Shown: positions 13,531 through 31,016, counted from the stretch's first letter. The stretch is DNA of 64,000 bases from Actinomycetota bacterium (GCA_046262935.1 JBHELT010000083.1:5360-69359), one strand, 5' to 3'. Translations and numbers: made by a program. The notes: generated from the sequence alone by a model not told the origin.

Positions 13531-13533
13531 TCA

Positions 13534-13568
13534 AACTTACGGTAACGTAGGTTACGTTACCGTAAGTT
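13534..13568. promoter_or_regulatory. perfect 16-bp-arm inverted repeat AACTTACGGTAACGTA-ggt-TACGTTACCGTAAGTT immediately upstream of the desaturase-tetR operon
   Basis: Read from the sequence. Arms 13534-13549 and 13553-13568 are exact reverse complements. No flanking U-tract. Sits 4 nt from the desaturase start, so it is a candidate TetR operator. Confidence 0.55.
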
Positions 13569-13586
13569 ACTTTCGGCGTCAACCCC

Positions 13587-14735
13587 CTAGACGATCCCGT
13601 CGAGCCTTAATACTTCGATGGCGTCATCTCCGTAACCCAGCTCGCCAAGCACCTCATCGGTGTGCTGCCCGAGACCGGGGACCGCTCGCAGTTTGTCTGG
13701 CGACGACAAAGGGAACCGAACCATAGGGATCTCACCCACGGGCGAGCTTCCCTTTACGAACATCCGCCGGTGTTTCAATTGGGGATGCTCGACCACTTCA
13801 GACATCGAACGCACACTCCCGAAAGGCAAGCCTGCTTGCGCCAATCTCGATGACCAATGATCACTTGGTTTCGATGAGATGGCATCGGCGACGAGCAGAT
13901 TCAACTCCTGCATGTTGTCGCGCCGCGATGTCATCGAATCGAACCTCGGATCATCGCGCCAGAGCGGCTGCTCGACGACTTCGCAGAACAACTTCCAGTG
14001 CGGCTCGCTTGCGACCGCGACATTCACGAATCGACCATCTTGTGCCAAGAAGGGGCCGTAGGGGCAGATGAACTGATGACGCATGCCTCCTCGCGCCGGT
14101 TCCTCGTGACGGTGCCACCACTGATGCGGAAAATACCCGAGCCAGAACGCTGCCGAATCGAGAAGGGCCAGGTCGATGAACGATCCGAGTCCGTCATAAC
14201 CACGCTCGATCAAGGCCCCCATGACCGCCATCACGGCATGTGAACCCGCGATCAGATCGGTGACTGGCATACCAACCTTCGCGGGGGCATCGGGATATCC
14301 ATTGGTCAGCAAGATCCCCGACTCGCCTTGAACCAGAAGGTCATATGCCTTCACATCTTTGAATGGTCCATCTTGGCCGTATCCGGAAAGACTGCAGTAA
14401 ACCAGACGTGGATTCACGCCACGCAGGTCCTCGGGACCTATGCCGAGCTTGGCGACGGTGCCTGGCGTGAAGTTCTCGATGAAGACGTCTGCCGTCGCAG
14501 CCAGCTCGCGGATGATCATTCGGCCCTGCGGCTTGCTTGCGTCGATCGTGATGTCGCGCTTTCCCATGTTGAAGGCTACGAAACCGCTCGAAAGGCCTTC
14601 GACGTAGTCGTCCCAACCTCGAACTACATCGCCAGAGCCCGGTCTTTCGATCTTGATGACGTCGGCGCCCAGTTCGGCCATGATGCACGACGCGAAGGGC
14701 AGGGCGACGGCTTGCTCGAAAGCAACAACCCTCAC
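13587..14735 (-). CDS. CoA-transferase family III (CaiB/BaiF) protein
   Basis: 382 aa. Start MRVVAFEQAVALPFASCIMAELGADVIKIERPGSGD is characteristic of family III CoA transferases. Confidence 0.85.
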   Translation of the reverse strand: MRVVAFEQAVALPFASCIMAELGADVIKIERPGSGDVVRGWDDYVEGLSSGFVAFNMGKRDITIDASKPQGRMIIRELAATADVFIENFTPGTVAKLGIGPEDLRGVNPRLVYCSLSGYGQDGPFKDVKAYDLLVQGESGILLTNGYPDAPAKVGMPVTDLIAGSHAVMAVMGALIERGYDGLGSFIDLALLDSAAFWLGYFPHQWWHRHEEPARGGMRHQFICPYGPFLAQDGRFVNVAVASEPHWKLFCEVVEQPLWRDDPRFDSMTSRRDNMQELNLLVADAISSKPSDHWSSRLAQAGLPFGSVRSMSEVVEHPQLKHRRMFVKGSSPVGEIPMVRFPLSSPDKLRAVPGLGQHTDEVLGELGYGDDAIEVLRLDGIV

Positions 14736-14814
14736 GCCACGTAAAGGGCCCTCGCCCGACTTTTCATCTAGCGACGATGCGATCGATCCCCTCCCGCCCG
14801 GCTACGGCCCACAA

Positions 14815-15678
14815 CTAGTCGGTCGCGACGGGCGTTTCGACTGGTGCATCGAGGGTTATCGTCGACTCTTGTCTCTTGTTCAACTCAGCCTGACTCTTGA
14901 GGAACTTCGCAACGCCCGTGCGGTGGATGAGGCCTCCACTCACCGATGGGCTTAGTGCGTGGATGACAGGGCCCAACTTCCCCAGAGCAGAATTGACCTT
15001 CACCTCAGCCGAGTTGTTTATGACAGCCCCGACGGTAGCTTTAGCAACAGCGTCGACGGAGACGGCCCCCGCCGCCGATGGAGCAGGGCGGCCCCAACGT
15101 TCGAACATGCCACCCTCGACGAAACCCGGGCAAACGACAGACACACCCACACCGTGCTCGGCCAATTCCAAACGAAGCGATCGACTGAACCCTACGACGG
15201 CATGCTTCGAAGCTGAGTAAACACTGTTGTGAGGGACCGGAAGAAGGCCAGCCATCGACGAGATGTTCACGATGTGCCCCGACCTACGGTCGATCATCGC
15301 TGGTGATACCAGTCGCGTGAGGGCGATCAAGCCTGTTACGTTGACCTGGATGATCTGCTCGATCAGATCTAGGTTCATCTCCTCGAAGTCATAAACCTGT
15401 TCGACGCCCGCGTTGTTGACGAGGACGTCGATGCCACCAAGGTTTAGGGTCGCCTGCGCCACCAAAGCTTCCAACGATGAACGATCCCCTACGTCGGTAG
15501 GTATGGCCGTTGTGCTTATCCCCTCCGCTTGAAGCGCAGAGGCAACTTGCTCGAGTTCGCCCTTCGACCGGGCTGCGATCGCCAAACGCGCTCCCTGCTT
15601 GCCGAACTGCCTTGCCATCTCGACCCCGAGACCGCGAGAGGCCCCCGTGATCAGTACGCCCTTGCCTTTCAATTCCAT
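14815..15678 (-). CDS. SDR family oxidoreductase (short-chain dehydrogenase)
   Basis: TGASRGLG Rossmann motif, NNAG, and a YxxxK active site (YSASKHAV). Confidence 0.9.
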   Translation of the reverse strand: MELKGKGVLITGASRGLGVEMARQFGKQGARLAIAARSKGELEQVASALQAEGISTTAIPTDVGDRSSLEALVAQATLNLGGIDVLVNNAGVEQVYDFEEMNLDLIEQIIQVNVTGLIALTRLVSPAMIDRRSGHIVNISSMAGLLPVPHNSVYSASKHAVVGFSRSLRLELAEHGVGVSVVCPGFVEGGMFERWGRPAPSAAGAVSVDAVAKATVGAVINNSAEVKVNSALGKLGPVIHALSPSVSGGLIHRTGVAKFLKSQAELNKRQESTITLDAPVETPVATD

Positions 15679-15778
15679 CGATTACCACCTTCCGGATGTT
15701 GGGATGGGCCAGCGGGAACCGTTCGAGGCCGCATGGTCCTTCAAGGAAACTCTGGTCATCAAGGGTAACAAAAAGGAG

Positions 15779-18058
15779 TCAGACGAGGCTCTTGTCTGGT
15801 TCGGGCGATAGATGAGATTCAAACGTTATCGAAGGCAGCAGCCGGTCAAGCCATTTGGGCATCCACCAGTTGAGGTCTCCCAGCAATCGCATCGTCGCTG
15901 GCACCAGCACGATCCTTATGATGGTTGCATCGAGGAACACCGCCGCGGCCAGCCCAAAACCCATGGCCTTGATGGGGATGAGCCTTGCAAGAGCGAATGC
16001 GCCGAACACCGTAACCATCACCGCCGCAGCACTAGTGATTATGCGGGCAGTGTGTTCCAGTCCCCAACCAACGGCTTCTGTGTTGTCTTTGGTCTTTAGG
16101 TACTCCTCCCGGATCCTTGCCAGAAGGAACACCTCGTAGTCCATCGACAAGCCGAACAAGATACAGAACAAGAACAACGGCAAGAACGATTCGACGATCC
16201 CTTCTGACTTGAATCCGAGAAGGGTTTGTCCATGCCCCTGTTGGAAGACGAAAACAACAAGACCATAAGCGGCCAGCACCGACGCTAGGTTCATCAAGAT
16301 CGCTTTCAATGGAAGAAGGATGCTTCTGAGGAACAGCATGAGAACGATGAACGAAAGCACCAACACCAAACCTACAACCGAAGGCAGGGCCCCGGTTACC
16401 TCCTCGTTGATGTCGTGGTTCAGGGCCGGGTCCCCACCAACGGCGATCTTCAGCGAAGGAAAGTTTCTCGCGATGGTTCCGCGGAGCCGGTTGATCAACG
16501 ATTGCACCTCGGCCGAATTTGGTTGATGTTTACTCACCAGGGTGAGGGTGGTCGACCTACTGTCTTTGGCGATCATCGAAAAAGCGAATGGAGAAAGGCG
16601 CGGATCTCGAAGCGCCTGCTGGGCTTCTTGCTCCGAGACTCCAGGAACCAAAGTGGCGATCGACGTTACGCTTGCAACTTCCTTGTCCGAGGCAAGTCTG
16701 TCGCTCAATGCGAAGATGTCCTTGAAGGCCGGCCCGGTTACCAGTTGGTCCGCCTTTACGACAAGAACGATAGGCCCGATCTGACCGGAGCCGAAGGCGC
16801 TAGCAGTTAGTTCAAGTGCCCGGCGCGGCCCCGACGATGCCGGCAATATCGAAGGGCCAGATGATCCAAGTCGAAGCGACCTAACGGGTGAGGCGAGCAA
16901 CGCGATAATCGTGATCGAGATGATCAAGGGTGCGACGGGACGTCGCATGATGAAGTGCGCCCAGCGCCGCCACATGCCGCCGGTTTCGCCCCCCGCCGTT
17001 CTGCGACTGAAACTGAGCGCGTTCACGCCTTTGCCCAATACCGCGAGCAATGCAGGAAGCAGGGTCAGAGCTGCGGCCCCGGCGAAGAACACGGCGATCA
17101 TCGATCCGGCTCCCATCGAGCGGAAAGCTGGCAGCTTCACGAGCAAGGTTCCTGAAAGGGCGACGACAACGGTAAGAGCCGATACGAAGACTGCCTTTCC
17201 GCTAGTGGCGATGGCCTCTGCGATCGCATCGTTGCGATCTCGGCCAGCACGGGACTCTTCCCGATAACGAGTCAAGATGAACAATGAATAATCGATACCA
17301 ACACCGATGCCGATCATCGAAGCGATGTTTTGGGTGAAAAGGCTCACAGTCGTAGCCGATGCAAGCAGTGATATGAGTCCGAACGAAACGAAGAGGCTGA
17401 TGAGCGCGAGCACCAGTGGCACGCCGGCTGCCACCACCGACGCGAATGCGATCACCAAGATGACCAAGGTGATGGGAAACGCAACCTTCTCGGCGCGCTC
17501 CAGGTCATGGGTAGTCGTCTTAGAGAACTCGGAGTAGAACGGCCCTCCCCCAGTCAATAGCACCTCGACGCCCGACCCCCTCGAAGCATCGTCGACGGCT
17601 CTTTGTAGAGCATCGGTGTGCTTCAGTACTTCGTCCTGAGACTCGGACAGGCTTGCAGTCGCGATGGCGGTGTGACCATCCTTTGATACCGATCTTTGCG
17701 GAGTTGCGAATGGATCTGTGACCGATGCAACACCACGTCCCTTTCGCAGCGCCTGGATCGAAGCCGCCACGACCTGTTTGAAACGCGCCTCGGAGGCGTC
17801 GAGGGTTTGCGAATGGAAAACCACGAGGTCGTTGAACTGATGTTGGGCAGTGAAGTCCTTCGCCAGCGACTGCTTGACCTGGTCGGATTGTGAACCCGCC
17901 ACTTCGAAGCCCCCTTGCGATAAGCGGTCTTGAAGTTTTGCGGCTTGCGGACCAACGGCCCCGATCGCAATGATCCAGATCGCAAGCACGATCCAGCGCT
18001 TGCTAGCACACCAACTTCCCAGCCGATAAAAGAAACTGCGATCGCCCGATGTGTTCAT
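15779..18058 (-). CDS. MMPL family (RND superfamily) transporter
   Basis: 759 aa with 12 TM helices in two 6-TM blocks and two extracytoplasmic loops. N-terminus FFYRLGSWCASKRWIVLAIW is typical of MmpL proteins. Confidence 0.9.
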   Translation of the reverse strand: MNTSGDRSFFYRLGSWCASKRWIVLAIWIIAIGAVGPQAAKLQDRLSQGGFEVAGSQSDQVKQSLAKDFTAQHQFNDLVVFHSQTLDASEARFKQVVAASIQALRKGRGVASVTDPFATPQRSVSKDGHTAIATASLSESQDEVLKHTDALQRAVDDASRGSGVEVLLTGGGPFYSEFSKTTTHDLERAEKVAFPITLVILVIAFASVVAAGVPLVLALISLFVSFGLISLLASATTVSLFTQNIASMIGIGVGIDYSLFILTRYREESRAGRDRNDAIAEAIATSGKAVFVSALTVVVALSGTLLVKLPAFRSMGAGSMIAVFFAGAAALTLLPALLAVLGKGVNALSFSRRTAGGETGGMWRRWAHFIMRRPVAPLIISITIIALLASPVRSLRLGSSGPSILPASSGPRRALELTASAFGSGQIGPIVLVVKADQLVTGPAFKDIFALSDRLASDKEVASVTSIATLVPGVSEQEAQQALRDPRLSPFAFSMIAKDSRSTTLTLVSKHQPNSAEVQSLINRLRGTIARNFPSLKIAVGGDPALNHDINEEVTGALPSVVGLVLVLSFIVLMLFLRSILLPLKAILMNLASVLAAYGLVVFVFQQGHGQTLLGFKSEGIVESFLPLFLFCILFGLSMDYEVFLLARIREEYLKTKDNTEAVGWGLEHTARIITSAAAVMVTVFGAFALARLIPIKAMGFGLAAAVFLDATIIRIVLVPATMRLLGDLNWWMPKWLDRLLPSITFESHLSPEPDKSLV

Positions 18059-18250
18059 CGCGTCTTAGCCTTCACTGGATCCCCCTTACGTGCGAATATC
18101 AACCCACAAGAGCATATGCGTGTTACCCTTGCTGTACAGGCAACGAGGTTGCCTCGTGGGTTTTCTCCCTTGTTTGCTCCTATCGGCGTTCTCGGGTGAT
18201 CAACCCTCTTGAGAAACAGCCCCCGCCCAAAGAGGCGGAAGGAGGAACAT

Positions 18251-19443
18251 TGAGTACCAGGAGTTTCGCGGAACTAGGCGCGTCCAAACGCACGGTCGAG
18301 GCACTAGAGGCCCGCGACATGAAGCATGCATTCGATATCCAAGCACTCGTCATCCCAGACGCGATGCAGGGCCGCGACGTGCTTGCCAAGAGCAGAACTG
18401 GGTCCGGAAAGACCCTGGCCTTCGCAGTGCCAATCGTGGAATTGATCAAGCCAGCCGACCCTAGACCGAGCGCATTGGTGTTGGTCCCAACACGAGAGCT
18501 GGCAACCCAGGTGACGCAGGAATTTCAGCACATAGCGAAAGCTAACGGCCTGAAAGTAGCAGTTGCCTACGGGGGCGTTGGGCTTCAAGACCAGGCTCGA
18601 TTGGCATCGAAGAGTCACATCTTGATCGCCACTCCCGGAAGACTCGAAGACTTAGCCGACCGCAAGATGATCAACCTCGACCGCGTCAGGATCCTCATCC
18701 TTGACGAAGCGGATCGCATGCTCGACATGGGCTTCCAACCACAAGTCGACCGAATCGTTCGCAGGATCAAAGGCCCCCGACAAACCATGTTCTTCTCGGC
18801 CACCCTCGACGGTCGCGTTGGTCAACTCGCCACTTCTTACACGAAGGACGCAGTTCTACGCGAAGTCGACTCGCCCAAGTTGACGGTCGAAGAGGTGGAG
18901 CATGTTTTCACGGCGGTAACCGCAGGAGACAAGATCGGCGCTTTGGTCGATGTCCTCAGGAAAGATCGCGAGCACGCCCTGGTTTTCGTGAGAACAAAAA
19001 GAGGCGCCGACCGGTTGGTTCTTAAACTCAAGACCCATGGTGTTCCAGCAGTCGCTATGCATGGAGACATGTCTCAAGCCGCCCGCGAACGTTCCTGGTC
19101 CAAGTTCCAGTCGGGCAGAGCCAATGTCTTGGTTGCGACCGATGTTGCAGCACGAGGGCTCGACCTCGATCGCATAAGTCATGTGATCAATTTCGACCCT
19201 CCGGAAGACGAGAAGGCCTATGTCCACCGCGTCGGAAGAACTGCGAGAGCAGGGCGAAGTGGCTCGGGAATCACGCTTGTTACACCCGAACAGAACGGCG
19301 ACGTTGGGCGGATCGCGGCAAGGCTCGACCTCAATGAGCAGTTCGAAAAGGATGGACTCAAGGTCCCAGCCCCGGCGATCGCATTCACTAGTGGACGCGG
19401 ACGCAAGTCGATGATGGGCAGGCGCCCGAGGAGAAGGTTCTAG
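18251..19443 (+). CDS. DEAD-box ATP-dependent RNA helicase
   Basis: TTG start at 18251 preceded by GGAGGA. Motifs: Q-motif, AKSRTGSGKT, DEAD, SAT, HRVGRTARAG. The upstream 190 nt (18059-18250) form a long structured 5' leader. Confidence 0.9.
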
Positions 19444-19456
19444 TTCTCCAAAAGGG

Positions 19457-22400
19457 CTAGAAGACTCCTACGAGCGGCTTCCAATCCTTGACACCAAGGC
19501 GGCTTGCGATCTGTTCGGCACGGGCTTCAGCACCAGGTACGCCGATCCCAAAGTGGATACTGACCGCCATCGCTAAGCCTTCTTCATAGAGCGACTTAGA
19601 TTCGATAGCGGTTGCGATCGCCGACCTGACGGCCTCTTTCGAGCGAGCATAGTCACAGCTTTTCGCATGGACCGTGGCCGACAAGCGATCGATCATCGAC
19701 AGCTGCGCTGGACTCAGACCCTTACGATCAGATCCCAGAAGATCGGGCGAGGATCCTTCGAATACCTCCGCCTCGGCCTGCCAAAGATGGCACTGCAGCG
19801 TCAGCCACTCCGAGCCCAAGGCAACCGACCTTTGTTCGGCTTCCTTAAGCATCTCAAGGCCCTCGTCGGGCCGCCCGCCGCGGGCCGCTGCCCTTCCCTT
19901 ATTACTGGTCGCAAGCGCGATGCCAACTTCGAATCTCGATGGCCTCCAACCGTCGAGCGCGTCTTGGAACAAGTTTTCGGCTTCGGCCAATCTCGCCTGA
20001 TCGGAATAGATCTCACCGATGTTATTGGCTATCGTCGCTGTACCGGTTACGTCACCCGAACGTATCCGCACGTCCTTACTGCGTTCGTAATACGAAAGAG
20101 CATCGGTCCATCTGCCTTGATCGTAAGCATCGGCGCCGAGATTGTTGAGAACCCATCCCAACTGCCTCAAGTCCCCGATCTGTTCGTAGATAAGCAGCGG
20201 CATCTCACTGAACTTCCCCGCTTCGGGGTCCCCCAGTGCGCCGTAGATAGCTTGCAGGAGACTATGCGCGTGAGCCAGCCCGGGACGATCGCCTGCTCGT
20301 TCTGCAACTTCGGCGGCTTGTTTTGCGATCGGGATACTTCGCTTCAAGTCGCCTCGCAACCGGACGATATTCGCCCGCCCCACTAAGAACCGGGTCCTCA
20401 ACATAGGATCGTCGCCATGTCGGTCGAGGAGCCCGAGCCCGGTCCCCCAATCGCGCATAGCAGAATCGAGTCTGCCTAGCCGCAGTTCTATCTCGCCGAG
20501 CTGTCGCAGTATCCCGGCTTTCGTCAGCGGATCGGTTGCGAGACGTCGCGCCTTTTTGTAGTAACCGATCGCCTCTTCATAAAGCCCGCTGAACTCTGAG
20601 ACCTTGCCTAAGTCATCGAGTAAGTCGATCACCTGCGAGGTGGATACATCGGGTATGCGACGGCTAGCTTCCAAGGCTCGTTTATAAAAGGTGGCAGCTT
20701 CCGTGTTGGCATAGCGCGACTGGGCCCTCTTGCCCGCGGCGAGACTGTATCGCCAGGCCTTCAGGTGCTCGCCAGCGGCGAAGAAATGGAGTGACAACAT
20801 GTCTTCGGAGTCTTCGTCGTCGCTGGCGGTTGCAAGCATCTCGCTTTCGATGAGAGTTCCCAGCGACGCATGTAGCTGCCTTCGAGACTTGAACGACAGA
20901 CCTTCATAGGCAACTTCGCGAAACAGATCGTGGCGGAACCTGATCTTGGAGTCCTCGGGAACCAGGAAGTATCCGAGGCCACGAGTTATCTCGACTTTAT
21001 GGTCACGACCCAACCGGTGGGACTCATCTACTTGGCGAAGCAGATCGGATTCGAATATCGGCCCTAGCACCGAGGCAACTCTAAGCACCCTTCGCTCTTG
21101 CCTCGAAAGTCTGTCGACCCGAGAGGCGATCATGGCTTCGAGGCTCTCGGGTAATTCGCCGCCGTCGCTTCCAGAGCCTTCTGACTCGATAAGTTCCCGC
21201 AGGAACAGAGGGTTTCCTCCAGACCTGCGAGCGAGTTCCGATATGCGGTGCTGACTGAGCAGCAGCGATCGGCCAGCTTCCTTAGCCATCGCCTTCATCG
21301 CATCGAAGCCGAGCGGCGCGAGTTCCATCTCGAGATCCAATGTGCCAGGGCTGGCTATGTATCCCCGGTCTGGGTACCGGCGCGCGATGATCACCATCCA
21401 CCTTCGCGCCCGGTTGGTTACAACCATGTGATCGATGAGTTCAGAACTCGCCTCATCGGCCCAGTGAGCGTCCTCTATCAGGAAGAGCAACGGACCGGCC
21501 GTAAGAGACTCGATCAGATCCACAACGGCTTCGTGGAGTTTGCCTTTACGAAACGCAGGGTCGAGCGCGTCGGCCTCGGGCGTGGGATCCACCACGGCAC
21601 CTACGACCGCAGCCACCAGTGGCAGCCATCGATGCAAGTGAGGTGCCGAAGTACTGACGACTTCATCGAGAACTTTCCCAGCAGGGGCCGCCCCCAGGTC
21701 AGCGCCTATACCGCACAACTCGCGAACGACCGACGTGAAGATGGAATAAGGCGTTGAAGATCGATATTGGAATGCCTGAGTGGTGATGATGTTCATTCCT
21801 GAAATCTGGCTCACGAACTCCTCGATCAATCGAGACTTACCCAGACCGGCATCACCTGATATCTGCACCGATTGGCCCCCTTGGTGCAGTGCAGCCAGGC
21901 GCTCGTGAAGGCGAGATAGTTCCTCCTGTCTCCCATGAAGAGGGGTCTGCTCCCTGGCCCTGCCTCTTGGATCGTTGCTGATGAACCGGATGTCTACGGG
22001 AGTAACCGCCGCTGACTTTCCTTTCGGCAGGAAGGGTTCGGTTCGCTCGAACTCCACCCGCACGTCCAAGCGGTCGAGCACAGACTCTGTCGTCAGCACT
22101 TGTCCCACGTGAGCCTGTTGCATCAAACGCGCAGCCAGGTTCACTGCATCGCCCATGACTGTGTAAGTCCTACGGAATTCAGTCCCTATCTCACCTGCGA
22201 AAACATGGCCCCGGTTGGCCCCGATCTTCACCGGGAGTTCTGAAGCGTCCGAGATCGTTCGCAGTGCCCTCATCAGACGCTCTTCATCATTGCCGGTTGC
22301 AACAGGAGCGCCTGCGGTCAATATGACCTTGGCGCCGCGCGGATATACGTCCGTTCCCAGGAAACAAACGTCGAAGGAATCGCATGTCCCCTGCACCATC

Positions 22401-23347
22401 GAGATGAATCGCTCAAGGTCCACGGCAAATGCCTCTGGCTGTGCACCGGTAATCATCGTATCGATATCCGTGAAGCAAACGAAACCGATCGACACTCTGC
22501 GATGTTCAGCCTCCGCGTCACCAGATGACACCTGTGCCCTAACGCGTTCGGGAAGGAACGTATACAGATCTATTGGCATCACTGGATCTTCATTCGGTCT
22601 CGATCCAACCAGGGAACGATTGAACTTTTTGAGGATGAAGCCTGCGCCCTTTTGCTCTCCAACAAGACCGTGCTTTTCGAGAAGGACGGCCACCGCCTCC
22701 GACATCACCACCTCACCCGCCTCGGCGATAGTTTCCATGTCCCCGGTGATGGTTGAACCCTCGCCGGCCACTATCAGTTCGCGGTGTGATCCTCCAACCA
22801 AGAAAAAGTCGAACGGCCCTGTGTGCAAACCCGCACTCATGCGTAGTCGAACCGGTCCCGCTGAGGTTTCGACCCGGCCGATGCGCCCTATCTGTCTTTG
22901 CATGCGACTCACCACCTCGGTTGCATGCATCAGATGTTGGTCGCCCCTGAAGAACAACAGCAAGGCATCGCCGCCGAACTTGAGAAGACCACCCCCGTGA
23001 AGGTGGGCAGTCTCCAGAAGGCTAGAAAACGTGGAATGGATCGCGCCTGTGACTTCCTCGGCCCCGACCTTGCCCTTGGATGCGAGCTTCTCCGACATCT
23101 TGGTGAAGCCGGAAAGGTCGGCGAAGATCATCGACCCTTCCAGGCGTCGCCATAGCTTGCCGGGTTCCTCCTGATCCCAGGCGAGGACCAATCTTGGGAT
23201 GAAGGGGACTAAAGCGTCTTCTGGCACGCTTCTATTAAAACCCCCACCGGGCGATGGGGTACAGGGCAACGCCTGGTTCTCTATTTGAACTTGAAATCGA
23301 CGAAGTGGGTTTCGACGCCATTGAACGTTACGAGCAACCTGCGGCAC
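19457..23347 (-). CDS. multidomain regulator: two tandem class III adenylyl/guanylyl cyclase homology domains + P-loop NTPase (AAA_16/STAND-like) + C-terminal TPR repeats
   Basis: Cyclase domain 1 (IFADLSGFT...FGGDALLLFF) and cyclase domain 2 (IGFVCFTDI...YTVMGDAVNLAARL). Walker A GDAGLGKSRL. Multiple TPR-like helices follow. The true start is possibly the GTG at 23227, which would remove the 67-bp overlap with the upstream gene. Confidence 0.8.
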   Translation of the reverse strand: MPQVARNVQWRRNPLRRFQVQIENQALPCTPSPGGGFNRSVPEDALVPFIPRLVLAWDQEEPGKLWRRLEGSMIFADLSGFTKMSEKLASKGKVGAEEVTGAIHSTFSSLLETAHLHGGGLLKFGGDALLLFFRGDQHLMHATEVVSRMQRQIGRIGRVETSAGPVRLRMSAGLHTGPFDFFLVGGSHRELIVAGEGSTITGDMETIAEAGEVVMSEAVAVLLEKHGLVGEQKGAGFILKKFNRSLVGSRPNEDPVMPIDLYTFLPERVRAQVSSGDAEAEHRRVSIGFVCFTDIDTMITGAQPEAFAVDLERFISMVQGTCDSFDVCFLGTDVYPRGAKVILTAGAPVATGNDEERLMRALRTISDASELPVKIGANRGHVFAGEIGTEFRRTYTVMGDAVNLAARLMQQAHVGQVLTTESVLDRLDVRVEFERTEPFLPKGKSAAVTPVDIRFISNDPRGRAREQTPLHGRQEELSRLHERLAALHQGGQSVQISGDAGLGKSRLIEEFVSQISGMNIITTQAFQYRSSTPYSIFTSVVRELCGIGADLGAAPAGKVLDEVVSTSAPHLHRWLPLVAAVVGAVVDPTPEADALDPAFRKGKLHEAVVDLIESLTAGPLLFLIEDAHWADEASSELIDHMVVTNRARRWMVIIARRYPDRGYIASPGTLDLEMELAPLGFDAMKAMAKEAGRSLLLSQHRISELARRSGGNPLFLRELIESEGSGSDGGELPESLEAMIASRVDRLSRQERRVLRVASVLGPIFESDLLRQVDESHRLGRDHKVEITRGLGYFLVPEDSKIRFRHDLFREVAYEGLSFKSRRQLHASLGTLIESEMLATASDDEDSEDMLSLHFFAAGEHLKAWRYSLAAGKRAQSRYANTEAATFYKRALEASRRIPDVSTSQVIDLLDDLGKVSEFSGLYEEAIGYYKKARRLATDPLTKAGILRQLGEIELRLGRLDSAMRDWGTGLGLLDRHGDDPMLRTRFLVGRANIVRLRGDLKRSIPIAKQAAEVAERAGDRPGLAHAHSLLQAIYGALGDPEAGKFSEMPLLIYEQIGDLRQLGWVLNNLGADAYDQGRWTDALSYYERSKDVRIRSGDVTGTATIANNIGEIYSDQARLAEAENLFQDALDGWRPSRFEVGIALATSNKGRAAARGGRPDEGLEMLKEAEQRSVALGSEWLTLQCHLWQAEAEVFEGSSPDLLGSDRKGLSPAQLSMIDRLSATVHAKSCDYARSKEAVRSAIATAIESKSLYEEGLAMAVSIHFGIGVPGAEARAEQIASRLGVKDWKPLVGVF

Positions 23348-26300
23348 AGGCCCGACCAGCCTGTCTTCGGTGTATCAACCACGTCGAGGTACTGGCCCGA
23401 GACCGAGTCGTACTTCAGGCCGATCCCCAAGGAGATGACCGTTGGATCGCTAAGCAGCGATTCGGTCCGGTTCGAATCGCAGCCGATAGCTCTCCATTCG
23501 AGACCAAGGTCCGACTGCTTTAGGCCGTCGTAAGACTTTCCGCTCTGGTCACGCAGGAACCACTTGAGTGGCACGGCCTGGCCCCCCTGCACGGTATTTA
23601 TCTGTCCCGAGGTGCTGTCGGTGCCGGTCACGGGAGTCTTGAAACCATCGAACAGAGAGTGCACGTAATACACGGCGTCTTTGATGGTCACATTGCCCGC
23701 CGCATCTGCAGCCTTCACCTGAAAGATGTTCTTACCGGGCTTGGAGGTATCGATCGCCGTTGACGGTGAGACCGTGCCAACGCACGAGTCGATCGGGGAC
23801 TCGACATCCGAACACGAGTACGAAGCGTTGACAGTCTGACCTAGAGTCAACACCGTTCCGTTGATAGGCGAATCGATCGTTATCTTCGGAGGGTTAGAGT
23901 CGCCGAACTCGCTCGACTTGTTGTATGAACGAGAGACATTGCCATGATTGTCAACAGCCTGTGCGCTGAATTTCAATGAAGGACTACTGGCAGCAGCCGA
24001 TCCGCGGAAGCGGTCCGTGCCGGGCAATTGAGTCAACTTGATGTATCTAAGAGTCCCGCCTTCACTCAGCAATATGGAAGCTCCGGCGATGTCCGTGTGG
24101 TCCGACGGCGTTTCGTCTCTAAGTTCCACCTCGAAGGTTGCGACATAGTTCCCCGGGGTCCCCGAGACGGTTCCTTCGACCCGGTTGAATATGGCCGCCA
24201 GGTTGTCGCTGGTCGATGATGAAAGGTAAAAGACCCTCGTGTTCAATGAGGTGAACTTCCGCATGGTACCTATCACATGACCGTTGGACAAACCAGAAGA
24301 ACGGAACTGAGTAGTCAGCACGTTCAGCCGCTGACGCAGACCCTGAGGCGTTAAGAACGAACTCACATTGGCCGCGATCGGTGTCGAGAGATCATCGAAT
24401 TGAGGTTCGGGTGCGAACCGCGCCTCGTCGACAACCGGGACCGAGATCACAGGGTCGAAACCTGTCAGGGTTTGATAAGTTCCGCCCGTGATGTATACGC
24501 CCTTCGCGACCATCCCATTGACGGTGGCGTCTTGTCCGGTCCTTGCAGCGATCGGTTGATAAAGAGCTTCCTGCGGCTGCTGGTTATCGGCTTGCAAGAT
24601 CGTTCCATCGGGCGTTGTCGTTGATGAATAACTCGGGTTCAGGTCGATACTTGCGGCCTGCAGCGATGTGTCAGGGTCGTTCATGACCACAGGCGGCGTG
24701 GACGCCGGCGTAGTTGGAGCGACATCGAGATGCCACATCGGCAGTCCCCACAAAGTGAGCTCTTCGGAAGATTTCTTCTGAACCGGATCATAGAGATCCT
24801 GCTCGCCGAAGTAGGTGTTCTTGGCGAACTCGAGCGCCTTGCCCGTGCTGTACCCGTTTTTCAGATTCTGCGCGAACAGGACCATGAGGCGCTCAGACGC
24901 TGCGATGGTGTATTTGCCCCCATAGCCGTGTCCGTAGTTAGCGACCAAACCCACTGCTCCTTTCGAAGCTGTGAATTGCGCCCAGTCGTTCAACCTCCTG
25001 GCTTGATCGACCGTAGGCGAAGTGAGCAGTACGTCCTCTGGGTTCGCTCCGAGGTTGCAACCCATGGCGAAGATCAGCGAACCGCTGAGATCTGTAGTTG
25101 AAAGGTCAGCGGTTGACAGCGTTTCTGCCAGGTTCTTGTTGGCATCGCCATTGGCCGACAGGATCTTCGTGTGATTCGCGTGCCCGTTAGGCGAGATGAC
25201 CCGGCCTGTGCCGAAGATCGGCTTCAGCTGCGAGGCCGTCCAGGTGTCGTTGATAAGGGTGGTTGGACCACCGAGGATCTGCTGAAGCGACGTCGCCATG
25301 TCTGACATGAAGTCATATCCGGAGCTTTGCGTCGTGCCAAGTTGCAAGATCCCGTTGGCATTCTTGAAACGGCTTATCCCACCGACGATCTGCGATTCAG
25401 TTTCGCCGAGCCGGCCGATCGCCAGATCAGGGACGTAATGGTAATAGCCGAGCCACGGCACCGGGTTGAAGTCGGCGTAAGGAGCGTCTGACATCACATA
25501 AGAGTCTGCGAAGCTCGCATAGAACGCATTGTTCTTGGCCCCGCCGTCGGTCCGCGTTGTAAACGCAGCCTCTTGGGTGTAATCGAGTTCATTGAAGTAA
25601 GTGTTCAGGTCGGGGATACGCGCTTGCGGCACGATGCGATCAGTTCCGGCGATCACCATGCTCTCGAGCGAGTTAGTTCCGTTCGGTATCAAACCTCTCA
25701 CCAGCGCGTTGATCGAGCGGGTGACAGTATTGGCCTTCTCCGGATCGCACGGATCCTGATCCCATGCTGTATATGCCTGTTGCAGGGCAACTTCGTTCGG
25801 CGTGTCGTTGCGGTCGAGGTTGATGACTTGCCCCATCACGTCTGAGCGATTGATGAACGCTGGATCGCTCAGTGCATTCGCCACGTTGTTCGCGGCAGTT
25901 GACCCATAGCTGTCACCGAACCGCTTCTTGTTGACCAGCACGATCGTCTTGGTCCCCTGGGTCACGATGTTGTTCGCCACCCCAGCCGCTGTCTGGTTGG
26001 GGAATGCGAACGTCGTTGGCGCACATGGGGGTTGTGGGGCGGGGTCGATCACCTGGGCACGCAGGACGGCGGGCTGGTCTGAGGACGCGCTTAGGTACCC
26101 GTTGGCCTGCACTAAGAAGTAGTCGTCGGACGTTAGACCAACGGGCACCGTCACGTCGACCTCTTCTTCGTTCAAAGACCTGCTTGCTGAGATGCCTGCA
26201 ACCGCAAGTCCGCTCTGCAGAGGAACATCTTGCGCGACCTGAGGCTGGGAAGGCTGAGTCGAGCTGTTGACATTAAGGCCTGGGTCCGAAAGAGGCGACC

Positions 26301-28713
26301 CGATGATCGATATATCTCGTAGCGGTGAGCCGATGATCGATATGTCACGCAATGGGGAACCTGCCAAAGACTGGGCAGGACCCGAGTTGGCGGGCAGGTA
26401 AACAACCAGGTCAGCATCGACAGGCAGATGGCTGAGCATGAACCGCACCCGGGTCCCCGCGACGGACTTACCAGATGGCCCAACGGGGACCGGGAGCTTG
26501 AACAGATCGACATCTCCCGGACGCGAGATATGCGTGAAGTAAACGTTGTCGGCCGCCATCGGTGTTGCCGATGCGATCGAATCGTTCGATTCGAAGTTTT
26601 CGACTACGTTCACAGCCGCTCTGCCCGATATCGACTCCGAAAGATCGGGTGCCGCCGTCAACGTAGCTGCCGCACTGAAGGTTCCGAGCTTCCATCCCGG
26701 TCGCGCTTGGAAATCGATCTGGAAGAAACTACCCATGCTTATGGATGTCTGGGTGAGCGTCCATCTAAGTACGTTGCCATCGATGCTCGGATCGCCGAGT
26801 GGCGAGGGCACGCCCGCGCTGGCGTTCTTGATCTGAGCGCTGCCTGGGATATACGAAGAGGTCGCAGGCAGCGTGACGGCCGCGACCGGCGTCGAGTAAG
26901 AACTCGTTCCTGGGTATGCGTAGCTCAGGTGGTACTGAACCGCGTTAGCAGTTGGTCCTGAATATCTGGACAGGTCCTGTAAAGGTACGTCTTCGATCGG
27001 TGTCGAAGCGGCTCCCAGGATCCCGTAAACAACCTCGCCAAGGGAGAATGCATTAAATGATGCAACCGGCGAGCTCCAAACGTTGGTTGAGGTATTCAAC
27101 ACACCGAGGTCGCGGACCTTCGCATTTGCCAGGATGGCGCCGCTTGCAGCGGCACCGGCCAGGTTCTTCGTGCTGTTCGCGTCGCAATCGCCCGGCAGCA
27201 CCTTTGTGCAATCAACTATCGACGCAAGCCTTCCCGCCGTTTGAAGTTCTCCCAACCGGATCGAACCCAGCGGCATGTTCCTAAGTCCAACCGACGAGTC
27301 GAGCCCAGGATGGGCAGGGTCCCCCGCCAGGAGAAAGTCGAGCATCATCGAGCGGGTGAGATTGATATTGCTCATGGCAAGTCCGCTGAGCGGGAAGCCA
27401 CTAACGTCGACACCCGCCAATTCCTGCGCGAATAACGACGCGTCCATACCGCCGAAGCCCGAGCCGCAGTTGGCGAATCCCTGAGCTTCCCATCTCTGAC
27501 AGAAGGTTGGACCCGCAGGCAGGGTTATGTCGCGTGCTCTGACGTTGCCCAACATCCAACCAGCGGCGCTGATCGATCCGAGGCGCGAAGCACTGAAGTC
27601 GATATCTTTGACGGTTACCTTTGCGAGTCCCGGTGGATTAAGTGTTACGACATCTTTTACGGTGATGTTGCTTAGCGTGGCGGCGGCGAGTGCTGAGCCT
27701 GCCAGTACATCGTCTTCCCAGTTGCCTACCAGTCTGGGGAGATCCGGCTTGAGCGGCAGGTCGGACAGAACCATGGTGCTCAGCGCCCCACCAGTTAGTC
27801 CCGACCCGATGATCGAGATGTCACGAAGTGGCGAACCGATGATCGAGATGTCACGAAGTGGCGCCGAGGCCTGTTGCGAAGGGGCACTCGGTTGCGTTGG
27901 GACGTCGGAAACGGGGACCGAACGCGGGCTGGCCCCGATCGAGGGTTGATCAGCAGTCAGGTTGAGACCCGACTGGGGAGGGATCGGGGTGACGTCGGTG
28001 ATGGTGATCGTTCCCCATGATGGGTAGGCGTGATTCGACTGCGGTTGTGAAGCTGTGTCGAGGGTCACGTTGAGGTAGTTGGTTTTAGTTGGGTCGCCGG
28101 GGACGGTGACCGTCTTAGTCCCAGAGGTGTGTTCGATCTGCCCGTCGCCGTAAGAGGTTGCTCCCCAGACGAATCCGAGGCCAGGCAGATCGGTGGTGTT
28201 CAGCGGGTCGGTAAGGCCTAACTGCCAGTAAGGACGCTGCGAAACGCTGACCGAGAATGAATCGTAATATCCCGTGCCGCCGTTGTAAGGGGCGTTGCTG
28301 GACCCAGGTGCGTTGTAGGAATCCCAACTCGAAAGGTCGTAGTTGAAGGTGATGCTGTATGAGCCGCCACTTGGAAGAGCAGCCGCTTCGGAATGCATCG
28401 ATGAGTTCATAGTGCCGCTCTCGGGCCGATCGGCGGTGCCCATCACAACGGTGTTCCCGTCGGCGGATACCTCGGGAGTTTCCGGACATACGTCGCACTT
28501 CGTCCAACTGAGCGTCGGAGTCGCCGCATGCGTTACAGGCAACGGCGACAACTGGAGCATCAACATCGAAAGCACAGCCAAAAGTCCGATGCTACGAAGT
28601 TTGCTGCGCGATGAACGAACCTTCGAAGATGCGAAACGATGCAACACTAGATTCCTCCCCCCAGACGAACGTCTCTGGTGATCTGCGGTGAATGACTGAA
28701 GTCTCTGACGCAC
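23281..28713 (-). CDS. giant secreted multidomain protein (1,810 aa): signal peptide, LRR-like region flanked by SPLRDISIIG tandem repeats, C25 (gingipain)-like cysteine-peptidase candidate domain, C-terminal Ig/PKD-like beta domains
   Basis: N-terminal hydrophobic signal region (LLAVLSMLMLQLSPLPVTHAATP). Two separate tandem arrays of an identical decapeptide. A His...Cys pair in gingipain-like context (ISPNGHANHTKI ... LIFAMGCNLGAN, AIGRL). Repeated LxxLxLxxN-like stretches between the arrays. Confidence 0.75.
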   Translation of the reverse strand: MRQRLQSFTADHQRRSSGGRNLVLHRFASSKVRSSRSKLRSIGLLAVLSMLMLQLSPLPVTHAATPTLSWTKCDVCPETPEVSADGNTVVMGTADRPESGTMNSSMHSEAAALPSGGSYSITFNYDLSSWDSYNAPGSSNAPYNGGTGYYDSFSVSVSQRPYWQLGLTDPLNTTDLPGLGFVWGATSYGDGQIEHTSGTKTVTVPGDPTKTNYLNVTLDTASQPQSNHAYPSWGTITITDVTPIPPQSGLNLTADQPSIGASPRSVPVSDVPTQPSAPSQQASAPLRDISIIGSPLRDISIIGSGLTGGALSTMVLSDLPLKPDLPRLVGNWEDDVLAGSALAAATLSNITVKDVVTLNPPGLAKVTVKDIDFSASRLGSISAAGWMLGNVRARDITLPAGPTFCQRWEAQGFANCGSGFGGMDASLFAQELAGVDVSGFPLSGLAMSNINLTRSMMLDFLLAGDPAHPGLDSSVGLRNMPLGSIRLGELQTAGRLASIVDCTKVLPGDCDANSTKNLAGAAASGAILANAKVRDLGVLNTSTNVWSSPVASFNAFSLGEVVYGILGAASTPIEDVPLQDLSRYSGPTANAVQYHLSYAYPGTSSYSTPVAAVTLPATSSYIPGSAQIKNASAGVPSPLGDPSIDGNVLRWTLTQTSISMGSFFQIDFQARPGWKLGTFSAAATLTAAPDLSESISGRAAVNVVENFESNDSIASATPMAADNVYFTHISRPGDVDLFKLPVPVGPSGKSVAGTRVRFMLSHLPVDADLVVYLPANSGPAQSLAGSPLRDISIIGSPLRDISIIGSPLSDPGLNVNSSTQPSQPQVAQDVPLQSGLAVAGISASRSLNEEEVDVTVPVGLTSDDYFLVQANGYLSASSDQPAVLRAQVIDPAPQPPCAPTTFAFPNQTAAGVANNIVTQGTKTIVLVNKKRFGDSYGSTAANNVANALSDPAFINRSDVMGQVINLDRNDTPNEVALQQAYTAWDQDPCDPEKANTVTRSINALVRGLIPNGTNSLESMVIAGTDRIVPQARIPDLNTYFNELDYTQEAAFTTRTDGGAKNNAFYASFADSYVMSDAPYADFNPVPWLGYYHYVPDLAIGRLGETESQIVGGISRFKNANGILQLGTTQSSGYDFMSDMATSLQQILGGPTTLINDTWTASQLKPIFGTGRVISPNGHANHTKILSANGDANKNLAETLSTADLSTTDLSGSLIFAMGCNLGANPEDVLLTSPTVDQARRLNDWAQFTASKGAVGLVANYGHGYGGKYTIAASERLMVLFAQNLKNGYSTGKALEFAKNTYFGEQDLYDPVQKKSSEELTLWGLPMWHLDVAPTTPASTPPVVMNDPDTSLQAASIDLNPSYSSTTTPDGTILQADNQQPQEALYQPIAARTGQDATVNGMVAKGVYITGGTYQTLTGFDPVISVPVVDEARFAPEPQFDDLSTPIAANVSSFLTPQGLRQRLNVLTTQFRSSGLSNGHVIGTMRKFTSLNTRVFYLSSSTSDNLAAIFNRVEGTVSGTPGNYVATFEVELRDETPSDHTDIAGASILLSEGGTLRYIKLTQLPGTDRFRGSAAASSPSLKFSAQAVDNHGNVSRSYNKSSEFGDSNPPKITIDSPINGTVLTLGQTVNASYSCSDVESPIDSCVGTVSPSTAIDTSKPGKNIFQVKAADAAGNVTIKDAVYYVHSLFDGFKTPVTGTDSTSGQINTVQGGQAVPLKWFLRDQSGKSYDGLKQSDLGLEWRAIGCDSNRTESLLSDPTVISLGIGLKYDSVSGQYLDVVDTPKTGWSGLCRRLLVTFNGVETHFVDFKFK
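26300..26359 (-). repeat. tandem 30-bp coding repeat (x2 plus partial) encoding SPLRDISIIG (array 2)
   Basis: Read from the sequence. The two copies differ from each other and from array 1 only at synonymous positions. Confidence 0.8.
27806..27865 (-). repeat. perfect tandem 30-bp coding repeat (x2 plus partial) encoding SPLRDISIIG (array 1)
   Basis: Read from the sequence. Copies 27806-27835 and 27836-27865 are identical except for the last 2 nt. Confidence 0.85.
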
Positions 28714-29435: not shown

Positions 29436-31016
29436 GTGGATAATCGCCCGATGACATCTACGACCGTTCCAATCGACCTCAAAAGCAAGGCTGGGCGATT
29501 CACCCTGATCGCCACCATCCTCGCATCGGCGATCGTGTTCCTTGATTCAACCGTTGTGACGGTGGCGATCCCATCGATACAACGAGATTTCTCGGCGGCG
29601 TTCTCGTCGATGCAATGGGTCGGCGATGCGTACTTCGTGACGCTTACCGCTTTCCTTTTGATCGGGGGTTCTTACGGCGACCTCTTCGGTCGAAAACGAG
29701 CCTTCGTGATAGGGCTGGTCAGCTTTACCCTAGGTTCTATCCTTTGCGGTTCGGCCCCCAGCATCGGTTTCCTGATCGCAGCCAGAGCTATCCAGGGACT
29801 CGGCGGGGCGCTGCTCATACCTTCGAGCTTGGCGATCATCACGGCCACATTCGGTGAGGAGCAGCGTGGCAGGGCGATCGGGATATGGGCCGCTACCTCA
29901 GGTCTGGGGGCCGCGGTGGGCCCATTGGTCGGCGGCGCCCTGATCGACGCATTTTCGTGGAGATGGATCTTCTATATCAATATCCCGCTGGCCATTGTGA
30001 CCTTGCTGTTCGCACGGGCACAGATGCCCGAAACTCGCGACGAATCTGCGGTCCAACATCTTTCAACAGCAAGCGGAGCCGCCGCGGCCGTCGCCCTTGG
30101 AGGCGGTGCTTACTGCCTCATCCAGGGCCCCGTTGATGGATTCACGAACCCGCGAGTCTTGATCGCATCAGTCGTGGCGGTGATCTCGGCTTTCGCATAT
30201 TGGTATGTCGAGCGCAGGGCGAAACAGCCGATGATCCCTCACGGGGTGTTTCGAAACATACGTTTCACGTCTGTGCAGGTCGCCACGCTCACCATCTACT
30301 TCGCGCTGAATGGCGTATTTGTTTTCATCATCCTTGGCGCTCAACAGATCCACCACCTTTCTAGCCTCAAGGCGGGGGCCTCTCTCATTCCTATCACCTC
30401 ATTGTTGCTGCTGTTATCGCCAACTGTCGGTAAGGTCGCGGGGAAGATCGGTCCCAAGATCCCCATCGCGGCGGGCGCGTTGCTGTGTGCCATCGGGGTC
30501 GCGATCGCGGCGTTTTGGGGACCCCACGAAAGCTATTTCACACTATTGCTGCCGGCACTCGTCGTTTTCGGAGTGGGTCTTAGTTTCATAGTCGCCCCGA
30601 TCACCGGGGCAGCCGTTGCATCCTTGGGGCAGAGACATGCAGGGGTGGCTTCCGCTGTGAACAACGCGGTCTCGAGGCTGGCGGGTCTTCTGGCTTTCGC
30701 GATCTTGCCTGGGATCTCGCTTGTGGCATTCACCCCGGCATTGCATCAGCAGATCAGTACCATCGACATCTCTTCAAAGCAGAAGGCTTCGCTCCTGGTT
30801 AACGTCGACAAGCAAGGTGGACTCGAAGCCCCAAAGGGACTTTCTTCCGATTCTGCCAAACAGGTAACAGACGCGATCTCGGAGGCCTTCTATCGCGGGT
30901 ATCGCCTGACGCTGTTCTGCGTAGCGGGCGTCATGCTGATCGGCGGGATCATCGCCCTTTTGTTCGTCGGCAAACCGGATGAAAGTTTGATGCAAAACCA
31001 AACGCCGCCCCTATAG
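29436..31016 (+). CDS. MFS transporter, DHA2 (EmrB/QacA, 14-TMS) drug:H+ antiporter family
   Basis: 526 aa with 14 predicted TM helices. MFS motif A-like GRKRAF in the first cytoplasmic loop after TM2. Confidence 0.9.
   Translation: MDNRPMTSTTVPIDLKSKAGRFTLIATILASAIVFLDSTVVTVAIPSIQRDFSAAFSSMQWVGDAYFVTLTAFLLIGGSYGDLFGRKRAFVIGLVSFTLGSILCGSAPSIGFLIAARAIQGLGGALLIPSSLAIITATFGEEQRGRAIGIWAATSGLGAAVGPLVGGALIDAFSWRWIFYINIPLAIVTLLFARAQMPETRDESAVQHLSTASGAAAAVALGGGAYCLIQGPVDGFTNPRVLIASVVAVISAFAYWYVERRAKQPMIPHGVFRNIRFTSVQVATLTIYFALNGVFVFIILGAQQIHHLSSLKAGASLIPITSLLLLLSPTVGKVAGKIGPKIPIAAGALLCAIGVAIAAFWGPHESYFTLLLPALVVFGVGLSFIVAPITGAAVASLGQRHAGVASAVNNAVSRLAGLLAFAILPGISLVAFTPALHQQISTIDISSKQKASLLVNVDKQGGLEAPKGLSSDSAKQVTDAISEAFYRGYRLTLFCVAGVMLIGGIIALLFVGKPDESLMQNQTPPL

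Follow-up and report, generated by a model that had tools for sequence, protein, structure and literature searches.

Introduction

[quoted passage not shown] Its base contact is of class IIIb, the class defined by a Thr in place of Asp at that position (PMC2613629), and Lys95 and Arg176 are both crucial for bicarbonate, Arg176 being the bicarbonate switch (PMC12867704, PMC12250328). Here we describe a protein of similar layout that is encoded on the minus strand of a 64,000-nucleotide stretch of DNA from an Actinomycetota bacterium (GCA_046262935.1 JBHELT010000083.1:5360-69359; this whole stretch is referred to below as the window), where its gene lies directly downstream of that of a giant secreted protein. 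The evidence assembled here makes it likely that the protein is an sAC-type soluble cyclase with a single composite active site, that it is switched by a STAND/tetratricopeptide repeat (TPR) module, and that it is paired with the giant secreted protein.

Several bacterial proteins combine a cyclase with an NTPase and repeats. Rv0386, Rv1358 and Rv2488c have a single class III cyclase domain, an AAA_16/STAND NTPase, a TPR-like region and a C-terminal LuxR helix-turn-helix (HTH), and in STAND proteins generally, whose motifs have assigned roles, the usual layout is an N-terminal effector, the NTPase and a C-terminal repeat sensor. In Chloroflexus aurantiacus there are reportedly enzymes with two catalytic domains and C-terminal similarity to sAC, one of which is said to be stimulated by bicarbonate. 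We know of no partner gene described for these sAC-like cyclases, the subject of Dev Genes Evol 214:503. Later accounts of the work of Kobayashi, Buck & Levin 2004 (via PMC11006738, PMC3085406) state in brief that the Chloroflexus bacterial cyclases conserve the 'functional domain structure' of sAC, and one passage describes Chloroflexus adenylyl cyclases as bicarbonate-activated like sAC (PMC11006738, citing Kobayashi 2004). The family to which the window protein belongs includes Chloroflexota members, and it is likened to these enzymes by description only.

Results and discussion

A bacterial cyclase of the sAC type

The maximal open reading frame (ORF; 19457..23347, minus strand) contains two Guanylate_cyc stretches (Pfam, E 6.9e-21), an AAA_16 match that scores 70.5 bits where the cut-off is 32.6, and a long TPR array made up of matches to TPR_12 (E 1.3e-29), TPR_10, TPR_7 and, below threshold, TPR_MalT. 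Pfam and NCBIfam scans at E <= 0.01 found no HTH or other DNA-binding family in it. These searches confirm the arrangement that an earlier note on this DNA had read from the sequence, namely tandem class III cyclase domains followed by a P-loop NTPase and TPR repeats without a DNA-binding domain. The same note called the architecture unusual, which it is not, because full-length sAC (PMC12802110) and thousands of bacterial homologues carry the same layout. That the protein is a regulator we infer; lacking a DNA-binding domain, it would act through a cyclic nucleotide.

The N-terminus could be fixed with some precision. Translation of the maximal ORF from GTG 23347 would create a 67-nucleotide overlap with the giant gene. 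The deposited protein (1256 aa, 'tetratricopeptide repeat protein [Actinomycetota bacterium]'), which is 100% identical, starts at GTG 23227. In all 120 of the homologues examined, an LxPYVPRL motif follows 5-25 residues after the start and none has the 40-codon extension, and human sAC aligns with the protein from this same motif. Because the deposited protein, the N-termini of the homologues and the sAC alignment agree, we take 23227, 53 nucleotides past the stop of the giant gene, as the true start; it is one of two that the earlier note had offered, and the other, at 23347 and overlapping the giant stop, was not borne out. Residue numbers of the cyclase protein refer throughout to the 1256-aa form.

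Homologues are abundant: of 8000 candidates that were scored, at least 4860 reach E <= 1e-10, and a scan of species-representative genomes yielded confirmed relatives in at least 576 stretches. The best 120 homologues are 1256-1400 aa long, cover 89-100% of the query with 39-44% identity, and belong to Actinomycetota (Acidimicrobiia, Gaiellaceae, Thermoleophilia) or Chloroflexota. Tandem full-length cyclase-STAND-TPR paralogues occur at L005:249-8208 and L071:6151-13813.

Across both cyclase domains, human sAC is the best match in the PDB (E 1.3e-18, phmmer), and a 56-sequence profile places sAC C1 + C2 at E 5e-33, above every single-domain bacterial cyclase. An AlphaFold model of residues 1-432, built from a 22-sequence alignment, has a pLDDT of 88.1 and a pTM of 0.89; when it was compared with the PDB using Foldseek, the top 24 matches were all human sAC (TM 0.77-0.82, about 460 columns, E down to 1.5e-29), followed in the list by pseudo-heterodimeric soluble-domain structures of AC9. 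With the profile match at that level and homologues down to E 1e-287, these features lie far beyond chance, and the protein belongs to the bacterial sAC-type cyclases, an already known kind. The domain order C1, C2, P-loop/STAND is that of sACfl by its description (PMC12802110), although identity to sAC is about 20% and sACfl is a 187 kDa protein compared with 1256 aa here.

Other candidate relatives are more distant. The earlier note had compared the protein with the Rv0386 type, which is not the closest known relative, the best structural match being human sAC; moreover, the single cyclase domain of the Rv0386 type pairs between chains and is accompanied by a LuxR HTH, whereas two domains and no HTH are present here. 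NCBIfam gave weak matches to the LuxR-family protein AbsR2 (only over residues 614-722, in the NTPase part) and to AfsR (over the NTPase/TPR part), and neither Pfam nor NCBIfam detected a GerE/LuxR HTH. The best NCBIfam match, the TOMM kinase/cyclase fusion family TIGR03903, shares the cyclase-NTPase-TPR portion (E 4.3e-53, residues 397-893), but membership was rejected, as a kinase domain is absent and the score, 180.5 bits, falls far short of the 705.75 required.

Complementary halves of one predicted active site

The roles of sAC residues were taken from PMC12867704 Table 1 and PMC12250328 and mapped through sAC alignments, and conservation was counted in the 120 homologues. In C1, the metal-binding residues Asp47 and Asp99 of sAC correspond to D37 and D87, and Lys95 of the bicarbonate site corresponds to K83; all three are invariant (120/120). 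The Asn/Arg positions of C1 are occupied by T and G, are not conserved in the family, and are degenerate in sAC as well. C2 has lost the first metal Asp position (C251 here, His in most relatives) and holds the remaining catalytic residues: T356, the equivalent of the class IIIb base contact Thr405, is kept in 110/120 homologues and sits seven residues ahead of N363, a spacing as in sAC; N363 itself, the equivalent of Asn412 (ribose/transition state), is kept in 73/120; and R367, the equivalent of the phosphate-binding Arg416, is invariant (120/120). The division of labour among these residues is therefore the same as in sACfl.

The extended beta2/3 hairpin of sAC C2 is also present. In the model its strands span residues 288-295 and 298-305, with YPRG (295-298) at the place of the FDKG loop of sAC. 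K300 was considered as a substrate Lys and rejected, because it lies past the hairpin turn and follows the degenerate second metal Asp position.

Because the catalytic residues of C1 and C2 are complementary, one composite active site is expected, C1 contributing the metal Asp pair and C2 contributing T356, N363 and R367, and the model leads us to expect C1-C2 within one chain to form a single-site pseudo-heterodimer, as in sAC and the membrane cyclases. The earlier note had raised such an intramolecular pseudo-heterodimer as a possibility and proposed aligning the two halves; the alignment, in which the metal Asp pair falls to one half and Thr/Asn/Arg to the other, and the superposition of the AlphaFold model on human sAC at a TM of about 0.8 both support it. 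Judged from its residues, the enzyme is probably active, with an uncertain base preference, and its product is most likely cAMP. The symmetry-related second site is, by the same reasoning, catalytically dead, but it retains the invariant K83, which suggests that the pocket is still in use; it is probably a regulatory pocket.

A STAND NTPase and TPR module

Walker A and Walker B motifs, a GxP motif, a post-winged-helix His and C-terminal repeats, which together characterize STAND proteins, are all found downstream of C2, and the residues of the Walker A, Walker B, GxP and His motifs are invariant or nearly so across 56 sequences. When compared with the PDB, the NTPase region alone gave a generic P-loop match to Pif1 and nothing more, and the TPR region gave profile matches to TPR proteins, the TPR region of AfsR and PH0952. 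By analogy with STAND proteins, the TPR and NTPase parts would form a ligand-operated nucleotide switch, and we infer that this switch gates the N-terminal cyclase.

Recurrent pairing with the giant gene

We surveyed 80 cyclase-homologue loci for relatives of the giant gene. A giant homologue was detected by tblastn in 19 of them (alignments of 1100-1540 aa at 26-32% identity, with E 1e-64 to 1e-122), always 5' of the cyclase gene and on the opposite strand, and ORF maps show it to be the immediately adjacent divergent gene, coding for 1964-2780 aa, in 12 loci. With the giant core as the query, a match was found upstream in 17/53 loci whose upstream flank is 7 kb or longer, but downstream in 0/55 loci whose downstream flank is of that length. 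The locus of Agromyces luteolus (L060) is unpaired.

The pairing was also found from the other direction. Each of the three best giant homologues, identified by protein search alone, is adjoined by a Guanylate_cyc-AAA_16-TPR gene, the arrangement being divergent in L082, convergent in L083 and tandem-downstream, as in the window, in L084. Six of the nearest cyclase homologues were looked up and all six adjoin a giant homologue with 32-42% identity to that of the window; one comes from a Chloroflexi metagenome-assembled genome (MAG). The best giant match, at 42% identity, is from an Acidimicrobiales MAG, in which the genes are in tandem like those of the window and the cyclase has the same G291/Y295-P296 signature. 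The two families thus adjoin in 9/9 further loci (3 giant-first, 6 cyclase-first), and the pairing spans Actinomycetota classes and a Chloroflexi MAG. The gene-neighbourhood survey that the earlier note had suggested therefore revealed recurrent adjacency, and the degenerate paralogue that it had considered, with both cyclase halves dead and no conserved linkage, is not what we find: the catalytic residues are kept and the linkage is conserved. In the literature searched we found no description of the cyclase-giant pair, of its companions that bind cyclic nucleotides (cNMP), or of a family-wide lack of equivalents of sAC Lys334 and Arg176, and the pairing appears to be undescribed.

How the two genes might be coupled is less clear. 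Within the 53-nucleotide spacer, the terminator-like hairpin CCCCAUCGCCCGGUGGGG at 23242-23259 (minus strand) is followed by GUUUUAA, and its 3' arm overlaps the sole purine-rich, Shine-Dalgarno-like stretch of the spacer. Since this hairpin occupies the spacer, yet such hairpins in the region are no commoner than in shuffled sequence, the operon status of the giant and cyclase genes is uncertain. Thus the link proposed in the earlier note holds as recurrent adjacency in distant genomes, and its reading as an operon is in doubt. Because the genes are divergent in most relatives, any coupling is not through co-transcription. A search of the giant/cyclase intergenic regions for CRP-type sites (TGTGA-N6-TCACA) gave only two matches, each with 2 mismatches.

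A different element was noticed in some of the relatives. The 20-nucleotide palindrome (A/T)TTGTCAAC(C/G)(G/A)TGCGACAAT occurs, with 17-18 of its 18 specified bases, at six places in 1.69 Mb (L004:609, L006:9891, L022:9921, L029:9882, L051:9889 and L034:4362). Five of the sites fall within a short divergent giant/cyclase intergenic region, and the sixth is near the 5' side of a giant homologue with the cyclase about 5 kb off. The palindrome may be an operator of the giant gene; the match is partly one of shared ancestry, as the six loci are related, and the palindrome is absent from the window.

Some giant-linked cyclases carry altered signatures. A Glu at the position of sAC Lys334 (291 here) is a guanylyl-cyclase-like choice; one giant-linked subfamily has E291 together with Ala in place of Asn363 (GxTAALAARLM), and a second has E291 together with Ala in place of Thr356. 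Such signatures occur in L006, L009, L014, L015, L019, L022, L029, L051 and others, and further in L028, L030-L032, L046, L047 and L062. Members of these subfamilies may use another substrate or have weak activity.

The giant protein as a probable peptidase

The maximal ORF of the giant gene (23281..28713, minus strand) codes for 1810 aa, with an N-terminus that reads as signal-peptide-like. The most conserved part of the protein is a core in which His1156 and Cys1197 are invariant in 16/16 sequences (the giant protein and the 15 relatives aligned with it); the conserved His and the Gly-Cys dyad, and the spacing between them, match those of gingipain-type C25 peptidases. Around this core the family is variable. 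A Pfam PPC match is present in 3/16 members, and adhesion-type modules differ from one member to another: VWA in 7/16, beta-helix in 5/16 and, in further members, PD40 propellers and Ig-like domains. Where VWA was mapped it is N-terminal (residues about 63-209 in L009, L014 and L051), the genes that bear it lying at L014:3979-9873, L009:3609-9527 and L051:3753-9815. We read the giant protein as a probable cysteine peptidase, clan-CD-like and secreted, whose binding modules vary.

The giant gene of the window also contains a 30-nucleotide unit encoding SPLRDISIIG, which is doubled in tandem at both 26296-26355 and 27802-27861, sites separated by about 1.5 kb; the consensus of the relatives has a 'PLGSIPLGSIP'-type motif. 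These repeats could be linkers or processing sites beside a region that is weakly pentapeptide-repeat-like or PPC-like.

Cyclic-nucleotide readers near related genes

Small cNMP_binding proteins of 124-138 aa adjoin the pair in L083, L086 and L087, and in L084 a major facilitator superfamily (MFS) transporter fused to a cNMP-binding domain is encoded directly upstream of the giant gene. More broadly, roughly one locus in four has a cNMP-binding domain within 10 kb, as detected by tblastn. That such genes recur beside family members favours cyclic-nucleotide synthesis by the family.

The cNMP-binding genes include those at L083:1418-1834, L084:8235-9917, L086:13828-14220, L087:13907-14281 and L028:13811-15779, among others. 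In L086 and L087, the cNMP-binding gene is followed by genes for a conserved 440-aa protein without a Pfam match and for a Polyketide_cyc2 protein. The window has an MFS transporter gene of its own (29436..31016), which was examined as a possible MFS-cNMP fusion and rejected: the C-terminus of the product reads as a further hydrophobic, transmembrane-like segment and there is no cNMP-binding domain.

Contrary evidence and alternative explanations

Several observations weigh against the reading of the protein as an active sAC-type enzyme paired with a secreted peptidase. The base-contact residue Lys334 of sAC is replaced by G291, and the same placement results from an ungapped GxP-anchored alignment, from a comparison of C1 with C2 by hhalign and from where the model bounds the hairpin; at this position the family has E in 53 members, G in 44 and A in 21. 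Base specificity and catalytic efficiency are uncertain for this reason. Arg176, the bicarbonate switch of sAC, is G162 here and Val in most relatives, and Lys144 is S131, so that neither the bicarbonate switch nor the water-mediated base contact of sAC is conserved and sAC-type bicarbonate activation probably does not apply. Moreover, Ala replaces the catalytic Asn in 47/120 relatives, and part of the family may therefore be weakly active. No cNMP-binding protein was found in the 64-kb window, where a hidden Markov model of the cNMP-binding proteins of the neighbours gave a best E of 2.7. As for the giant protein, a Peptidase_C25 match, just N-terminal of the dyad, is present in 3/16 family members (best E 4.1e-8), and it is on these three and the conserved His/Cys dyad that the family assignment rests; the giant protein of the window itself has no Pfam match, whether to C25 or to VWA, beta-helix or PD40, and in this it differs from gingipain-type C25. 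Sequence and profile comparisons with the PDB gave no peptidase, only weak pentapeptide-repeat-like matches in the N-terminal half. For the core (residues 930-1335), AlphaFold with an alignment of four sequences gave an unusable model (pLDDT 39, pTM 0.32), and the peptidase reading is for that reason not proven.

The replacements of Lys334 and Lys144 and the loss of the catalytic Asn from those 47 relatives would also be consistent with a catalytically impaired pseudo-cyclase, in which the tandem fold binds ATP or another ligand but yields little cyclic nucleotide, and the protein serves as a STAND/TPR scaffold; the PDB does contain such a tandem protein, 6YII, named 'class III adenylyl cyclase-like ATP-binding protein', which Foldseek aligns to the model with a TM of 0.58. 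This explanation is improbable, although it fares best among the alternatives: the window protein retains both metal Asp residues as well as the Thr, Asn and Arg, cNMP-binding genes are enriched beside family members, and the account of the Chloroflexus enzymes quoted above has them bicarbonate-activated like sAC.

It is somewhat less probable again that the adjacency of the giant gene reflects inherited synteny or chance, the cyclase being a general source of cAMP. Cyclase paralogues without a giant neighbour occupy 36/53 loci with enough upstream flank, and in a neighbor-joining tree of the 80 genome loci the giant-linked cyclases fall mostly in one part. The window cyclase appears in that tree as a long branch on one giant-linked clade, a placement that we do not rely on because its G291/T356/N363 signature matches other groups. 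However, the pair persists at 26-42% identity for the giant and 36-44% for the cyclase, across Actinomycetota classes and a Chloroflexi MAG, and in three relative orientations, and inherited synteny alone is for these reasons unlikely to account for it; the reciprocal checks were positive in all nine cases, and the placement in the survey is strictly one-sided, 17 upstream compared with 0 downstream.

An Avs-like anti-phage STAND sensor with a Pycsar-like cyclase effector, in which the TPR region would recognize a phage protein and the cyclic nucleotide would be the alarm, is very unlikely, since the weak PycC (Pycsar cyclase) matches in PADLOC (E 2e-12 to 5e-8), the Avs-like order of N-terminal effector, STAND NTPase and C-terminal TPR, and the small cNMP-binding proteins near relatives, which would all fit it, are set against PycC scores as low as expected for any two class III-type cyclase domains, no other PADLOC defence-system match and none for the giant protein, cNMP-binding domains that are fused to MFS transporters and not to transmembrane or TIR effectors, a window with no cNMP-binding gene in which the neighbours are the secreted protein and a DEAD-box helicase, a conserved partner that is a secreted multidomain protein and no defence effector, a large family related to eukaryotic sAC and often with several paralogues per locus (L005, L071), and no mobile-element context flanking the cyclase gene of the window.

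Feature coordinates and neighbouring genes

The coordinates of the features discussed above are collected in Table 1. Downstream of the cyclase gene, a DEAD-box helicase gene (18049-19443, plus strand) converges on it with 13 nucleotides between the stop codons; its annotated start is 67 codons past the start of the maximal ORF (397 vs 464 aa). Beyond it, at about 12556-18058 on the minus strand, is a lipid-related group of genes for an MMPL transporter, a short-chain dehydrogenase, a CoA-transferase of family III, a fatty-acid desaturase and a TetR regulator, their functions being those given in the public annotation of this contig.

Table 1. Positions of the cyclase gene, its partner gene and their features in the window
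Feature	Position	Strand	Remarks
sAC-like cyclase-STAND-TPR gene	19457..23227	(-)	1256 aa plus stop; GTG start 23227
5' extension of maximal ORF, 40 codons	23228..23347	(-)	probably untranslated; overlaps 3' end of giant gene
Cyclase domain C1, residues about 25-200	22628..23155	(-)	metal-binding half: D37, K83, D87; without Asn/Arg pair
Cyclase domain C2, residues about 239-420	21968..22513	(-)	substrate/transition-state half: T356, N363, R367
STAND-type P-loop NTPase module, residues about 430-830	20738..21940	(-)	Pfam AAA_16 and motifs
Walker A, GDAGLGKS, residues 458-465	21833-21856	(-)	
Walker B, LLFLIEDAHW (LLFLIED 580-586)	21461-21490	(-)	
GxP motif, GGNPLFL, residues 670-676	21200-21220	(-)	
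LSLHF with invariant His, residues 811-815	20783-20797	(-)	
TPR sensor-like region, residues about 835-1256	19460..20725	(-)	reaches C-terminus, no HTH
Spacer from giant stop to cyclase start, 53 nucleotides	23228..23280	(-)	contains terminator-like hairpin
Partner gene, secreted multidomain protein	23281..28647	(-)	annotated 1788 aa, 'PxKF domain-containing protein'
C-terminal PxKF ('rightmost') domain	23284..23649	(-)	NCBIfam NF038114, E 8.6e-16, 58.3 bits vs cut-off 35
Most conserved giant core, residues 930-1335	24643..25860	(-)	candidate clan CD / C25-like peptidase domain
Invariant His1156	25180-25182	(-)	giant core
Invariant Gly-Cys1197	Cys 25057-25059	(-)	giant core

A working model and its implications

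For an sAC-type cyclase switched by a STAND/TPR module and paired with a giant secreted protein, events might proceed as follows. Sensing of a ligand by the switch would lead to synthesis of a cyclic nucleotide, probably cAMP, at the composite site; this signal would be linked to how much of the giant protein is made or to what it does, and it would be read by cNMP-binding proteins, which are found beside the pair in many relatives and not in this window.

A further proposal, which we put forward tentatively and regard as possible rather than probable, is that the cyclase and the giant C25-like protein constitute a hitherto undescribed signalling module, ancient and made up of two genes, in Actinomycetota and Chloroflexota from soil, in which the STAND/TPR part senses a giant-linked cue and the cyclic nucleotide controls the giant. 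The substrate of the giant protein, its products or its export state might provide the cue, and the module would often be accompanied by a cNMP-binding protein of small size or by an MFS-cNMP-binding transporter.

The labels under which these proteins are deposited give little hint of such roles: 'tetratricopeptide repeat protein' masks a probable second-messenger enzyme, and the 'PxKF domain protein' upstream is probably a secreted cysteine peptidase. The wider interest lies in sAC itself, the catalytic core of which is well understood and the STAND/TPR C-terminus of which has a role that is unsolved; a 2025 study of purified full-length sAC found no regulator acting through the STAND/P-loop C-terminal region (PMC12802110). 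The bacterial proteins are useful in this regard in that they have the architecture of sACfl, are abundant, and have a complementary single active site, and the partner gene and the frequent cyclic-nucleotide readers offer a concrete way into the questions of which cue the switch detects and which process its signal governs. If the proposed two-gene module is real, the bacterial pair would be a tractable system in which to study what the STAND/TPR C-terminus does in mammalian sAC.

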